NCBI GenBank assembly: GCA_944371305.1 | Contig: CALVXM010000001.1 | Location: forward strand, 39,600 to 103,599 | Length of the DNA: 64,000 nt | Origin: an uncultured Bacilli bacterium | GTDB lineage: Bacteria; Bacillota_I; Bacilli_A; RF39; UBA660 | Direction: 5' to 3' | Part shown: piece after piece, positions 10,600-50,677 of the stretch | How the letters are laid out: every line of letters starts with the position of its first letter | How positions within the stretch are numbered: position 1 is the stretch's first letter | Notes under the pieces: generated by a model | Seen by the model: only the letters and a program-made list of their open reading frames with translations | What the model was told of the DNA's origin: nothing | The model's database searches: none | Made by a program: the position numbers and the translations under genes

Positions 10600-12354
10600 C
10601 TAAATTTTCAATACTTTTTGTTTAGCTTCTAGTTTTTCTAAAGCATCTTGTTCTAAGAAAGAATAATCAATTTTATCAGTTCCCGCTTTTCTAGGAAGTT
10701 CTGAAATAAACTCGATATAACTTGGAATTTCATATGATTTTAACTGTTCTTTTGTATTATTAGCTGTTAAAACTGGTTTTAAAAATTGTTCTTTAATACT
10801 ATCCATTACTTCCATCGAAGGTTCAACACCATCTTTTAAAACAATATATGCTTTATTTTTATATAACATTTCCTCATCAGGGACCTTAACAACCGCACAA
10901 TCACTGACATTATCCATATAAGAAATTAGATTTTGAATGCGATCACAATAAACTTTATTTAAGCTGGACATAATATAAAATCTTGATTCTCTACCAGTCA
11001 AAGTAAAATAACCATCTTCATCAATAGAACCTAAAGTACCTGTTTTGAAAAAGATTTTACCACCCCTTTCAAATTTAACTTCAGAAGTAGCTTTTTGATT
11101 TTTAAAATATTCTTTAAAAACATGTTTTCCTGAGACACATAACAATCCTACTTCATTATATTTTTTCTCTTCCATTGTCTCTGGATCAACTATAATAGCA
11201 TCAGTTCCAACCAATACTTTACCGGCAGTTTCTGGTCTAATTTCAATTCCCGTTGGATTGGTTCCACAACTAACTGTCTCCGCATTACCAGAACCATTAC
11301 CCATTTCAACATTTCTAGCGCCATGACTTTCTAAAAATTCTTTTCCTCTTTTAGAATGATTAGGAGTTAAAAAATCCCCACCTGATATAAAAGTTGTTAT
11401 CGATGATAAATCTTGGCTATCTTCGATATTTCTCATGATTAATTCTAATAAAGCTGGGCTTCCAAAAATAATATTCGGATTTTTCTTCAAGTAATAACTG
11501 ATTGTATCTTTAGATATATCAGGAGCTAGGATCGCTGTTTTACTACTTAATAAAGTCATTATTGTCGAAGTTACAAAACCATAAGGATAAGAAAATGGAA
11601 CACATACTAAAGTTTTATCACCATTTAAAGATTTAACATGACTAGAATTTTTTAAATAAGTACCCGCTGCTAAAACATTTTCATTAGTCAAAACAACCGA
11701 TTTGGGTTTACCAGTTGTTCCACTCGTAAACAAAATTAAACAATTATCTTTAGAATTATTATTAGGTAATCCTTTTTTTTGATATTTTGATATACTTTCC
11801 AAACTACTAAAATCAATAAAGGAATCATTATGAGTGATGTGATAATCTTTATCCATCAATAAATTATTTACTTTTGATTTATCTAGGGTAATTATATATC
11901 TTACACAGCTATTATTTTTAATTTCTTCATTTTCTAAATCGGTTTTATCAAAATTTATAAAAACTGAAGATTCAAAAGTATTAAGATAATCACATATTTC
12001 ATCTTTTGAAGCATTAGCATTTAAAAATGTCACAACTGCGCCGATTCGATTACAAGCTAAAAAAGTAGCTACTGCTTGATAATAATTAGGCATACAAACT
12101 GATACAATTTCACCTTTTTTTACGCCCAGTTCTTTCAAAGCTTTAGATATGATAACAGAATCATTAATTAATTGTTCATAAGATGCATTTAAATCAATGC
12201 AGTCAATGGCATCCTTCTTTTTATAAAAAGTATTTATTAATTGAATCGAATTATAAACACTCATATTAGGAATCACCGGATGTCGTGCAGAAAAAGAATA
12301 TCCATTATTTTGCGGTTTATCAATACTAGGATATCCAGTTAATTCTTTTTTCAT
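10600..12354 (-). CDS. AMP-dependent synthetase/ligase (adenylate-forming, ANL superfamily); start taken at MKKELTGY after a GGAGGGG Shine-Dalgarno
   Basis: AMP-binding motif LFTSGTTGKPKSV; about 585 aa; co-directional with mraY and murE. Confidence 0.8.
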   Translation of the reverse strand: MKKELTGYPSIDKPQNNGYSFSARHPVIPNMSVYNSIQLINTFYKKKDAIDCIDLNASYEQLINDSVIISKALKELGVKKGEIVSVCMPNYYQAVATFLACNRIGAVVTFLNANASKDEICDYLNTFESSVFINFDKTDLENEEIKNNSCVRYIITLDKSKVNNLLMDKDYHITHNDSFIDFSSLESISKYQKKGLPNNNSKDNCLILFTSGTTGKPKSVVLTNENVLAAGTYLKNSSHVKSLNGDKTLVCVPFSYPYGFVTSTIMTLLSSKTAILAPDISKDTISYYLKKNPNIIFGSPALLELIMRNIEDSQDLSSITTFISGGDFLTPNHSKRGKEFLESHGARNVEMGNGSGNAETVSCGTNPTGIEIRPETAGKVLVGTDAIIVDPETMEEKKYNEVGLLCVSGKHVFKEYFKNQKATSEVKFERGGKIFFKTGTLGSIDEDGYFTLTGRESRFYIMSSLNKVYCDRIQNLISYMDNVSDCAVVKVPDEEMLYKNKAYIVLKDGVEPSMEVMDSIKEQFLKPVLTANNTKEQLKSYEIPSYIEFISELPRKAGTDKIDYSFLEQDALEKLEAKQKVLKI

Positions 12355-44929: not shown

Positions 44930-45346
44930 CAATAAATTAGACAGAAAAAATGTGGATATGCAATTACTCCACCAAAAACAAGTAATTCAAATAGTATTAT
45001 AGATTTAGATGATAACTTAATAACAATTTTAAAAAAACATTATGAAAAAGAAAGTAAAATATATAGTTTTAGTAAAAATATGTTTATTTTTGGTAATGTC
45101 AGATTTTTAGCTCAAACTACTTGTAATAATAATTTAAAAAAATATGTAAAAAAAGCTAATGTCAAATACATAAGTCCACACGGTTTTAGACATTCCCACG
45201 CAAGTTTGCTTATTAATTTAGGTTGTGATAGTTATGATGTTGCACAACGTCTAGGTGATACTCCAAAAATAGTAGAAAATACATATTATCATATGTTTAC
45301 TAAAAAGAAAAAACATACTTTGGAATTGTTAAACAATTTAAAATAA
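44930..45346 (+). pseudogene. Remnant (C-terminal catalytic part only) of a tyrosine recombinase/phage-type integrase
   Basis: In-frame ..LITILKKHYEKESKIYSFS..ISPHGFRHSHASLLINLGCD..DTPKIVENTYYHM (R-H-x-x-R ... Y catalytic residues) with no N-terminal domain; upstream frame broken by stops. Confidence 0.6.
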
Positions 45347-45372
45347 GTGGTAATTAGGAGGTAATTATTTCA

Positions 45373-45402
45373 CGACATATTAAAACCCTTATAAAATAAG
45401 GG
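45373..45402 (+). terminator. Intrinsic terminator after the integrase remnant
   Basis: Hairpin cccttataaaataaggg then T5. Confidence 0.55.
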
Positions 45403-45598
45403 CTTATTTTTATATGGAGCGTATAAAGAAGAAGTCGAATAACTTTTCTTACGCCAATAATCAGGTAAGTAATAACTACTAACTAGTAAAATTATATCAC
45501 AACATTTACATTTTGAAACAAAAAATGTCTAATTTTACATTGAAATTATGAAAAATTCAAGAAATATGCTATAATTAATATGATTGGAGATGATTTAT

Positions 45599-46033
45599 AT
45601 GAAAGAAAATATCGATTTAGGTGCTGCAATTGAAAAAATTCAAAATTATGCTATCAACTCTTTTCAACCTAGTTATGTTCGTGCAGATAGTAAACCAGCC
45701 GATGTTGCAAAATATTCTGACTTTATAGAACTACCACATGATATAATTGACCAAGTTCCAGATGTAATCTTAAAAGTATATGGCGAAGAAAAAGGTGCTT
45801 TGGAATGGAAGAAAATTGCAACAGCTGTCTTCAAATTAACAGTAGTATCTGATGTACGTGTTGAAGTAACTAGATTAATGCGAGCTCTTTTAGCAGTATG
45901 GGACGAAGAACGTAAATTTATGTATAAAGGAAAAGATGGAAAAGACTATACTTCTTTTGAACAAGTTAGGTCAGTAAATGAATTTTATGCACAACAAGAA
46001 AATCCTACAATAGAACAAGGAAGAAGTAGATAA
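45599..46033 (+). CDS. Hypothetical protein (cargo ORF 1 of the mobile element); start at ATG after a GGAG Shine-Dalgarno
   Basis: Intact ORF with good RBS; no recognisable motif. Confidence 0.5.
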   Translation: MKENIDLGAAIEKIQNYAINSFQPSYVRADSKPADVAKYSDFIELPHDIIDQVPDVILKVYGEEKGALEWKKIATAVFKLTVVSDVRVEVTRLMRALLAVWDEERKFMYKGKDGKDYTSFEQVRSVNEFYAQQENPTIEQGRSR

Positions 46034-46052
46034 AAACTATAGGAGATTATAT

Positions 46053-46625
46053 ATGTTTGTAAAAAATAAAGTTATTGATAAAGACGAAATTCAAAGAGTA
46101 ATTGAAAGTAGAGATTTAATAACATATGATTCATTAAAAAAAGAATGGGATGATGTGGAAGAAACTAGTAAAGAATTAGGAATAGAACCTACAAATAAAG
46201 AATTTAATTTTTATGAAATGTATGAAGTTGCCTTTAGTTGCAATTTGTATGGTTTAACTTTAGATGAATTAGAATATATAGTCGAGAATAATTTATTTGG
46301 TTTTGATGAAAATAATATACTTGATTATAGATGTAAAATGAGTATTGAAAGAAGAATTAAATATTATAAACAAATTCTTTCTGATTTAACTAATTGCATT
46401 CAAAAAGGTAATGTAGGAAGTTATTTTAGTAAATATGGAGATTTATTTCACATGAGTGGTGGTGGATTACAAATAGCATCATTTTTGGGTTTAAATAGAA
46501 ATGGTGTTGAACTTACTTCAGAAGGTGAGAAATTAAAAGTTTGTATAGAGAACATTAGACAATTACATTACAACGAAATTAAACAGAGGTCTGCGACAGC
46601 TAAACATGGATCAGTTCATAGATAA
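46053..46625 (+). CDS. Hypothetical protein (cargo ORF 2 of the mobile element)
   Basis: Intact 190 aa ORF, AGGAG RBS 8 nt upstream; no recognisable motif. Confidence 0.5.
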   Translation: MFVKNKVIDKDEIQRVIESRDLITYDSLKKEWDDVEETSKELGIEPTNKEFNFYEMYEVAFSCNLYGLTLDELEYIVENNLFGFDENNILDYRCKMSIERRIKYYKQILSDLTNCIQKGNVGSYFSKYGDLFHMSGGGLQIASFLGLNRNGVELTSEGEKLKVCIENIRQLHYNEIKQRSATAKHGSVHR

Positions 46626-46747
46626 TATTTACAATGTAAATACTACATACAAAAGTCGTGGCACGTTATGAAATTACAAAGTAATTTTGTAAGTGGCGAT
46701 AGACTTTTATAAATATATTTTCATTACGAAGTTTTGAAAATATATAA

Positions 46748-46925
46748 TTGCAATTTATTGCAATTCAAAAAACATAATTATTGCTTGAACGATTAGTTCT
46801 TGCTTAATTATGTTTTAGGGTTTCAAAAGGGAGTATTCCCTTTGCACACCTATTGGCTCTGCCAATAGAGAAGTGTGTTTTATCTATTGGAAATAGATAT
46901 TACCGACAAGCGAATGCTTGTCTTT
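46748..46925. other. Candidate origin of transfer (oriT/RSA) for the Pre/MobV relaxase: inverted repeats ttgcaatttattgcaa (46748-46763), gggagtattccc (46829-46840), and cacacctattggc-tct-gccaatagagaagtgtg (46845-46877) ending in GTGTG/TTTTA
   Basis: Position immediately 3' of the mob gene on the non-coding side; the MobM-type nick sequence of pMV158 is GTGTG/TTA. Confidence 0.4.
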
Positions 46926-50034
<3,109 letters not shown>

Positions 50035-50058
50035 TTATCATCTCCTTTTCTTCAAAAA

Positions 50059-50104
50059 AAGAGGTGTCAAAAGTATTAAGCAACTAATACTACTGACACC
50101 TCTT
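50059..50104 (-). terminator. Strong stem-loop (11-bp stem, nested palindrome in loop) plus T7 immediately upstream of the serine recombinase RBS: putative read-through insulator / attenuator
   Basis: aagaggtgtca...tgacacctctt with T-run then GAAAAGGAGA then ATG on the minus strand. Confidence 0.5.
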
Positions 50105-50229
50105 AAAATCTAATTTAGAATAATATTTACTTATAAATACGAATCTCATACTATTTTTCCCCCTAAATAGACATAAGTCTTCTTGGCTGATTATTCTATC
50201 ACTTTTTTAAGAAATGTCAAATCATTGGC

Positions 50230-50505
50230 TTAAAAATGGCTTTTAATGTGATTTTCAAAGTCTTTAAACTTTATTTTTTCATTATAGCCATTAACAAATA
50301 TGTCATCACATTCATCAAACATTAAATATTCAATATTATTAACTTTAATAATATGTGGTTTTACATAAGCAATATTTGTTCCCTTAATACTTTTAATATT
50401 TCCATTTGTAATAGTAGGTTTAGCACAAGCAAACTTACAAATCATTTCAACCTTTCTTTTTAGTTCAATACTTATCTCTAATTCTTTAGTTTCTATTGTT
50501 AACAT
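50230..50505 (-). CDS. Hypothetical 91-aa protein between recombinase and tRNA-Gly
   Basis: ORF only; no motif. Confidence 0.35.
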   Translation of the reverse strand: MLTIETKELEISIELKRKVEMICKFACAKPTITNGNIKSIKGTNIAYVKPHIIKVNNIEYLMFDECDDIFVNGYNEKIKFKDFENHIKSHF

Positions 50506-50531
50506 ATAATCACTCTCACTTTCTTAAATAA

Positions 50532-50558
50532 CAAAAAAACTAACTATTTCTAGTTAGC
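50532..50558 (-). terminator. Intrinsic terminator downstream of tRNA-Gly
   Basis: Minus-strand hairpin ctaactagaaatagttag followed by T7. Confidence 0.7.
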
Positions 50559-50602
50559 ATTTATTACTCTCGAAATATAAAAGTTCGAGTTTCCTATCAT
50601 AT

Positions 50603-50677
50603 TGGAGCAAGTGAGCGGAATCGAACCGCCGTCCCAGCCTTGGCAAGGCCGTATACTAACCGCTGTACTACACCTGC
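50603..50677 (-). tRNA. tRNA-Gly (anticodon GCC), CCA encoded
   Basis: RC folds as cloverleaf: acceptor gcaggtg/cacttgc, anticodon stem cggcc/ggctg, loop ttGCCaa, T-loop ttcgatt, 3' tCCA; 75 nt. Confidence 0.9.

Follow-up and report, generated by a model that had tools for sequence, protein, structure and literature searches.

The stretch of DNA analysed here (the window, 64,000 nucleotides of contig CALVXM010000001.1 from an uncultured Bacilli bacterium) carries a mobilizable element of about 5.2 kb with two adjacent open reading frames (ORFs), ORF1 and ORF2. ORF1 (45599-46033, + strand) begins with ATG, has GGAG 8 nt upstream, and encodes 144 amino acids (aa). ORF2 (46053-46625, + strand) has AGGAG 8 nt upstream and encodes 190 aa. 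The two genes have the same orientation and are separated by 19 nt. This agrees with an earlier reading of the sequence (the original prediction), which had described two closely spaced genes, each with a ribosome-binding site, except that ORF1 had been given as 145 aa. Both are real genes under purifying selection, since homologous clusters were found for each and the pairwise dN/dS ratios were below 1. At 90% identity there were 41 homologous clusters for ORF1 and 24 for ORF2, all from metagenomes or metagenome-assembled genomes, and none of them included a named homologue. The dN/dS ratios were 0.35 to 0.53 for ORF1 and 0.24 to 0.39 for ORF2, with 0.65 in one ORF2 pair at 45% identity. The genes had been predicted to be cargo on a mobilizable element; this was borne out and can be sharpened, as the slot in which they lie is hypervariable and sharply delimited, and almost all related elements have other genes there.

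Borders and contents of the cargo slot

Homology between the relatives of the element stops at 45577-45579 and restarts at 46651 (AAAAGTCGTGGCACG...). The left border lies 2 to 3 nt past the TATAAT of an extended -10 promoter (45548-45575, + strand; ATGAAA-16 nt-TG-c-TATAAT, 10 of 12 consensus matches, with the TG present), which would drive expression of the slot. The sequence atatgcTATAAT stands upstream of unrelated cassettes, and some cassettes, such as that of locus L037, bring in a second copy of the promoter. On the right, a backbone block (46651-46925) starts with AAAAGTCGTGGCACG and contains conserved hairpins and a site resembling an origin of transfer (oriT). The last ORF of at least 18 unrelated cassettes has its stop codon immediately next to backbone AAGTCGTGGCACG; the window differs, with 25 nt of spacer that include a small hairpin between the ORF2 stop and this block (46626-46665 region).

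The content between the -10 box and the AAAGTCGTGGCACG block is swapped wholesale among close relatives. Loci L011 and L013 match the window on both sides of the slot, with the same break-points, and carry a 233-aa gene in place of ORF1 and ORF2. L019 and L020 have the host flank and the left end of the window but part from it at 45579 and encode a 530-aa protein instead. As their flanking DNA is nearly identical to that of the window (96 to 98%), one and the same chromosomal site can have different slot contents. Backbones with Mob proteins at least 94% identical carried at least 8 different cassettes. These comparisons show that the slot is a dedicated, promoter-driven cargo site with rapid turnover.

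We surveyed the slot in one genome per species together with metagenome contigs, which yielded about 110 loci (L numbers) with both flanks. Slot length ranged from 270 to 2660 bp, with one to four ORFs, all on the strand of ORF1 and ORF2, and the occupants comprised 45 unrelated protein families. PADLOC (PADLOC-DB v2, 5027 defence models) gave no match for ORF1, ORF2, or 38 alternative slot proteins. PHROGs matched seven slot proteins, six of them to families of unknown function and one to a "membrane-flanked domain," and only one of the matches was strong. Pfam, applied to ten slot proteins, gave one suggestive match, to a bacterial PH domain, just under the threshold. Membrane proteins were present among the alternative cassettes, and an ABC-transporter pair, RmlA/RmlB-like enzymes, and a phosphatase-like protein were identified by eye. 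The membrane, ABC-transporter, and sugar-nucleotide cassettes indicate that the slot accepts general cargo. Its occupants are mostly small soluble proteins without relatives, and on these searches the slot does not look like a hotspot of known defence systems. Rfam gave nothing above threshold over positions 45300 to 47000. The slot is a compact and well-delimited source of candidate conflict proteins, each of which could be examined singly.

The combination of ORF1 with ORF2 is rare, as it was seen only in the window and in L001, L003, L004, L012, and L111. A homologue of ORF1 (61% identity) is the sole slot gene of L184, and in L005 to L008 a 39% identical homologue occupies the same position beside a 69% identical left end, in larger elements that have no ORF2. 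Homologues of ORF2 are solitary in L189 and in L191/192, and in L190 the homologue is followed by a gene for a 732-aa HNH protein. An unrelated 72-aa gene precedes ORF2 at the same 19-nt spacing in L062, L181 to L183, and L186 to L188, and this gene and ORF2 diverged together. Between L012 and the window, ORF2 is 99% identical and ORF1 66% identical. On this distribution, ORF1 and ORF2 are not an obligate pair, since each occurs without the other, and they lack the obligate linkage of a type II toxin-antitoxin module. The suggestion that they form a tight two-gene toxin-antitoxin, abortive-infection, or defence module is therefore not supported, given also that neither had a PADLOC match.

The two proteins and their arginine-terminated tails

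AlphaFold modelled ORF1 with a pLDDT (predicted local distance difference test) of 86, as a helical N-terminal domain (residues 1 to 100), a beta-hairpin and helix at about residues 106 to 134, and a disordered basic tail ending in ...ENPTIEQGRSR. The two parts evolve differently. Omega (dN/dS) was 0.4 to 0.9 for the fast-evolving residues 1 to 100 and about 0.1 for residues 101 to 144. As dS in the latter region was 0.3 to 0.5, its conservation is at the protein level. The ORF2 model (pLDDT 91, pTM [predicted template modelling score] 0.82) is compact and consists of eight helices, with the C-terminus ...GSVHR. Both proteins are hydrophilic and acidic (isoelectric points of 5.3 for ORF1 and 5.35 for ORF2), like most proteins of the slot pool, for which the median isoelectric point was 5.2 compared to 6.6 for host proteins.

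The original prediction had recognized no motif in either protein, and wider searches agreed with it. Pfam, PHROGs, PADLOC, and NCBIfam, run on the window proteins and on every member of the ORF1 and ORF2 alignments, gave only noise below threshold. A match of ORF2 to Mab-21_C was dismissed, as it covered 28 residues and was seen in 5 of 19 relatives, all of them closely related sequences. Sequence-profile searches of the PDB with both proteins found no relative, nor did a comparison of the models with viral structures. A profile hidden Markov model (HMM) of ORF2 run against 1.84 billion representatives recovered 26 clusters, all of them single-domain members of its own small family, with no fusion protein among them. 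Neither gene was recorded in sequenced plasmids or phages; a search of viral contigs gave a single copy of ORF2, at the end of a contig labelled viral. In the family libraries, PDB profiles, and models, no catalytic motif or known fold was found in ORF1 or ORF2. This includes helix-turn-helix (HTH), ribbon-helix-helix (RHH), AbrB, and other DNA-binding folds, the toxin families RelE, MazF, PIN, Doc, and HEPN, and nuclease, ATPase, TIR, SIR2, and membrane domains. Pfam and PHROGs likewise gave no match to a described anti-defence family of the Acr, Ard, or Ocr type. The structural modelling that had been proposed yielded confident models with predicted new folds, and both proteins are orphans.

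Some slot proteins share short motifs. Those of L047, L048, L055, and L062/L181 have a common N-terminal motif (Y-V-L-I-x-x-x-D-x-x-x-K-x-x-F-V-E-K) and are otherwise different. The proteins of L055 and L056 have a motif, Y-K/R-T-C-D/E-G...T-M-E-E-V...Y-N, that loosely resembles the conserved C-terminus of ORF1. The latter likeness was not relied on, as the HMM of the ORF1 family misses both proteins and hhalign aligned 24 columns with an E value of 0.0076 and a probability of 5%. The cargo pool may be built from shared modules.

A further property is shared by slot proteins that are otherwise unrelated. Nineteen of the 45 slot families (42%) end in arginine, compared to 18 of 369 host ORFs (5%; Fisher P = 5e-11), and six further families end in methionine, usually preceded by a basic residue. 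A basic residue at position -3 or -2 together with a final arginine or methionine was found in 20 of 45 slot families and in 10 of 369 host ORFs. ORF1 ends in GRSR (46022-46033), and its final arginine is invariant in all 26 homologues. ORF2 ends in SVHR (46611-46622), and 18 of 19 homologues have a final arginine or lysine although the tail sequence varies. Several tails recur in unrelated slot proteins, namely, GMHR (three families and a fourth in L050), GRSR (two families), and KHR (two families). Three or four unrelated genes have the DNA sequence GGAATGCATAGA-TAA-AAGTCGTGG without any difference, and recombination history could therefore explain part of the tail. However, the arginine codons vary (AGA, CGT, AGG, and CGA), and internal ORFs, ORF1 included, also bear the arginine tail, both of which run counter to a cause purely at the DNA level. 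The tail could be either a relic of a recombination junction or a C-terminal address with a function of its own, for instance as a signal for type IV secretion. An arginine-terminated tail common to unrelated cargo proteins should be of interest to the mobile-element field.

The mobile element and its relation to known systems

Contigs in which the same genes occupy other chromosomal positions served to delimit the element, which extends from about 45416 to 50607. From left to right it consists of the left end, ORF1, ORF2, a noncoding block, mob, the recombinase gene, and a 91-aa gene, and these five genes are its only ones. The left-end block (45420-45577, + strand), which ends in the cassette promoter, is 72 to 94% conserved in relatives that differ in slot content and probably holds the recombinase site. 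The mob gene (46926-48182, - strand) encodes a MobV (Mob_Pre) relaxase of 418 aa (PF01076, E = 6e-30). It overlaps the gene for a large serine recombinase of 622 aa (48163-50031, - strand) with Resolvase, Recombinase, and zinc-ribbon domains. Upstream of the recombinase gene lies the 91-aa gene (50230-50505, - strand), which stands beside it in nearly all relatives, at differing chromosomal sites. The 91-aa protein had no family match and is a candidate directionality factor or regulator. In L005 its position is held by a 95-aa protein. The 91-aa gene and the adjacent tRNA gene are read in the same direction, and read-through from the tRNA promoter is therefore possible.

That tRNA gene, a tRNA-Gly(gcc) gene (50603-50677, - strand), is the target of the element. 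Its encoded 3' TCCA, read as TGGA on the + strand at 50604-50607, forms one copy of a 4-bp direct repeat, and the distal copy lies at 45416-45419 (TGGA, or TCCA on the - strand). Among the relatives scanned, the end with the 91-aa gene was near a co-oriented tRNA or transfer-messenger RNA (tmRNA) gene in 30 of 35, and in 16 inspected junctions it abutted the 3' end of such a gene exactly. The target genes were those of tmRNA and of tRNAs for Gly, Cys, His, Thr, Lys, Leu, and Ala. The same 4 bp, TCCA or ACCA, stood at both junctions and correspond to the encoded CCA end, with the far ends of the relatives reading ...TATACGC|TCCA or ...CACAGGC|ACCA. From the window and loci L024 to L058 and L103 to L145, the large serine recombinase seems to target the universal CCA end where it is encoded in a variety of tRNA and tmRNA genes. 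A review of integrative and mobilizable elements (IMEs) gives tRNA 3' ends as targets of tyrosine recombinases only (PMC5704250). CCA-end targeting by a large serine recombinase should be of interest to the mobile-element field. Second, often partial, copies of the 91-aa, recombinase, and Mob genes were seen beside the first element in L026, L027, L032, L057, and L184. These copies suggest that elements accrete in tandem, as is expected of an integration reaction that restores a CCA-like end. Close to the left end of the element but outside it, a fragment of 88 aa (45080-45346, + strand) matches the C-terminal part of a tyrosine recombinase (Phage_integrase, E = 6e-9), with a terminator behind it at 45386-45402. 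The fragment probably remains from an element that occupied the same tRNA gene earlier.

The oriT-like site (46850-46890, + strand) consists of a hairpin, CTATTGGC-TCT-GCCAATAG (46850-46868), followed by GAAGTGTG/TTTTA, with a predicted nick at 46877/46878. Relatives carry exactly TAGTGTG/TTA or TAGTGCG/TTA at this site, which are the mapped nick sequences of MobM of pMV158 and of MobSag (PMC5863519 and PMC5090054). In the MOBV1 oriT of pMV158 MobM and of IMESag-rpsI MobSag, too, a hairpin lies 8 to 9 nt 5' of these 10-mers. The site here differs from them in sitting downstream of mob, on its noncoding strand. If the nick is at the predicted position, the + strand would be transferred, with mob entering first and the slot last, as the sense strand; the predicted nick would be followed by mob rather than by cargo. 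A terminator, formed by a hairpin and a T run (46905-46922, + strand), is maintained by compensatory changes in the alignment of the relatives and would stop transcription of the cassette shortly before it reaches the convergent mob gene. Between the slot and oriT, a hairpin with a 12-bp stem (46769-46816; AAAACATAATTA...TAATTATGTTTT) likewise shows compensatory changes in the relatives. By analogy with the ssoA beside mob in IMESag-rpsI, it may be a single-strand (lagging-strand) origin.

The element has the features by which IMEs are generally defined (PMC5704250): its own integration module, a relaxase and an oriT-like site, no type IV secretion genes, several insertion sites, and short direct repeats. 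It is an IME of the serine-recombinase/MobV kind and not a close relative of Tn4451. The assignment to the Tn4451 family in the original prediction is correct in kind, as Tn4451 and Tn4453 (with TnpX and TnpZ) are also small chromosomal elements with a large serine recombinase, a Mob_Pre/MobV protein, an oriT, and cargo but no transfer apparatus of their own. In the strict sense it does not hold. The domain architecture of the recombinase is that of the TnpX type, whereas its identity was at most 29% to plasmid-borne recombinases and 23 to 25% to those beside clostridial TnpZ-like Mob proteins, with TnpX itself outside the comparison. The Mob protein was at most 45% identical to plasmid-borne ones, over the N-terminal domain only, and about 30% identical to the clostridial relatives found. 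TnpV, TnpY, and TnpW are absent, with no TnpV match and no additional ORFs in the five-gene element. RSA/oriT lies upstream of tnpZ in Tn4451 and Tn4453, whereas the oriT-like site here lies downstream of mob on the opposite strand. Those elements insert at loosely specified GA sites, in contrast to the CCA end of tRNA and tmRNA genes. Finally, their cargo lies between the recombinase and mob genes, whereas here it lies beyond mob, which overlaps the recombinase gene.

The slot also resembles an integron platform in having one resident promoter and promoterless, exchangeable cassettes, mostly of unknown function, in arrays of one to four ORFs. However, integrons depend on the tyrosine integrase IntI, and the element contains no tyrosine integrase, the 88-aa fragment lying outside it. 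No attC-like imperfect inverted repeat or recombinase site was seen at the cassette junctions. Here, two conserved flanks enclose a slot whose contents change as a whole, and some cassettes come with another promoter copy of their own. The relatives reside in uncultured gut Bacilli of the RF39 or "Tenericutes" type, under the labels Tenericutes, Mollicutes, Acholeplasma sp. CAG:878, and Candidatus Faecisoma. The element family was found in more than 35 species-level genomes and on hundreds of metagenome contigs and is thus common among uncultured Bacilli with small genomes from the human and animal gut.

Possible roles of the cargo proteins

We tentatively favour, at a probability of about 0.4, the reading in which ORF1 and ORF2, as cargo genes, are independent of each other and exchangeable, and their products are stoichiometric binding proteins in element-host conflict rather than a toxin and its antitoxin. 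The two genes would be cotranscribed as one mRNA from the extended -10 promoter of the backbone, and the transcript would run through the oriT region and end at the hairpin at 46905-46922. The predicted small, acidic, soluble, and all-helical products would most likely act by binding a macromolecule stoichiometrically and not by catalysis. The fast-evolving N-terminal domain of ORF1 could determine target specificity, while its conserved hairpin-helix and basic tail may have a constant role. The most likely role would be in conflict with the host or with rival elements, and our first choice would be the blunting of host defence or exclusion so that the element can establish and persist.

Conserved flanks around small genes that turn over quickly and often have no relatives are also seen in prophage "morons," hotspots of the P2/P4 type, and anti-CRISPR or anti-restriction loci. 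Genes at such loci are expressed independently of element functions and are typically conflict genes, and many of them belong to recognizable defence or anti-defence families. The slot differs in that no recognizable family was found in any of about 40 slot proteins tested and that no Aca-like HTH regulator is present. The likeness of the two proteins to anti-defence proteins of the Acr, Ard, or Ocr type is only general, in that they are small, acidic, helical, and orphan and turn over rapidly. Several points weigh against the binding-protein reading. The terms "binding protein" and "anti-defence" both draw on analogy and on negative findings. In the integrated state, the promoter has the look of a constitutive one, and this would suit a gene that benefits the host equally well. 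As the slot takes general cargo, its occupation alone points to no function. Since the 72-aa gene and ORF2 diverged together, ORF2 may in certain contexts depend on a small partner encoded upstream of it. Finally, the anti-defence genes of plasmids are concentrated in the leading region (PMC11541004), a pattern that does not fit the inferred polarity of oriT, with the slot entering last as the sense strand. The idea of leading-region anti-defence was itself weakened by the nick motif, identical to that of MobM and MobSag, on the strand that puts the slot last.

One or both genes might instead protect the host, in the manner of morons. Their small products would act by abortive infection or exclusion, would guard the cell against phages or incoming elements, and would so pay for carriage of the element. 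We consider this possible but doubtful. It would accord with the apparently constitutive promoter, with the rapid turnover of the slot, as predicted by frequency-dependent selection, and with the membrane proteins among the slot alternatives, including the bacterial PH-domain protein. Homologues of ORF2 lie beside AbiD in L189 and beside a type IV-like HNH nuclease in L190, and the L005 element with an ORF1 homologue also carries an OLD-family nuclease. However, such neighbours are equally expected for anti-defence genes and for mobile elements generally, most cassettes are far below the size typical of defence systems, and both the PADLOC result and the lack of nuclease, ATPase, TIR, SIR2, or membrane domains argue against protection of this kind. 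An addiction pair that stabilizes the element, with ORF1 as antitoxin and ORF2 as a type II toxin, would explain the 19-nt gap and the shared orientation, as well as the frequent presence of a small gene, ORF1 or the 72-aa gene, at the identical spacing before ORF2 and the codivergence of the latter two. Yet ORF2 homologues without a partner (L189 and L191/192), ORF1 homologues alone (L184 and L005 to L008), and the absence of both genes from most relatives of the element make this very improbable. Moreover, ORF1 and the 72-aa gene product are unrelated except for the last six residues, and neither ORF1 nor ORF2 resembles a toxin or antitoxin family or has an HTH, RHH, or AbrB fold. Even less probable is a role in the upkeep of the element, for example in setting the direction of excision, in regulating transfer, or in replicating or maintaining the excised circle. 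The ORF1 homologue of L005 to L008 does keep its place at the conserved left end of an otherwise different element, but in most elements with a near-identical backbone unrelated genes stand in place of both, the proteins showed no DNA-binding fold, and the conserved 91-aa gene is a better candidate. Addiction and upkeep are the least likely of the alternatives.

The tails suggest another alternative, in which the basic C-terminus is a secretion signal for the type IV system of a helper, so that protein made in the donor travels with the DNA and acts in the recipient. Positively charged C-terminal signals and the cotransfer of proteins by conjugation systems are established (PMC11288057 and PMC8714903). 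The excess of arginine ends and of basic tails over host ORFs and the near-invariance of the final residue in both families are consistent with delivery, as are the apparent expression of the genes in the donor and their predicted place as the last DNA to enter. However, the tail is short, more than one-third of the families lack it, and it is partly DNA shared with the backbone (GGAATGCATAGA-TAA-AAGTCGTGG), for which recombination history could account. The secretion signal is moreover undefined for the relevant Gram-positive or wall-less systems, and we regard delivery as unlikely. A related proposal, to which we give equally little weight, is that the slot is a tagging expression site in which a short basic tail (...G/S-x-H/R-R/M), partly encoded by backbone-proximal DNA, gives many of its unrelated occupants, ORF1 and ORF2 among them, a common address, most plausibly for the type IV coupling protein of the helper. 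If so, premade cargo proteins would be injected into the recipient with the element, which would compensate for the late entry of the slot DNA, and a minimal mobilizable element of human-gut bacteria would carry a polymorphic repertoire of effectors.

Two further observations concern the larger elements with the distant ORF1 homologue and their surroundings. The OLD-family ATPase-nuclease of L005 is encoded at 11064-12284 of that locus, inside the element. Just outside the left end, at 7973-9716 in L005, L006, and L007, lie genes for a retron reverse transcriptase (RT_Ec107-like, E = 5e-126) and a neighbouring protein of 193 aa.

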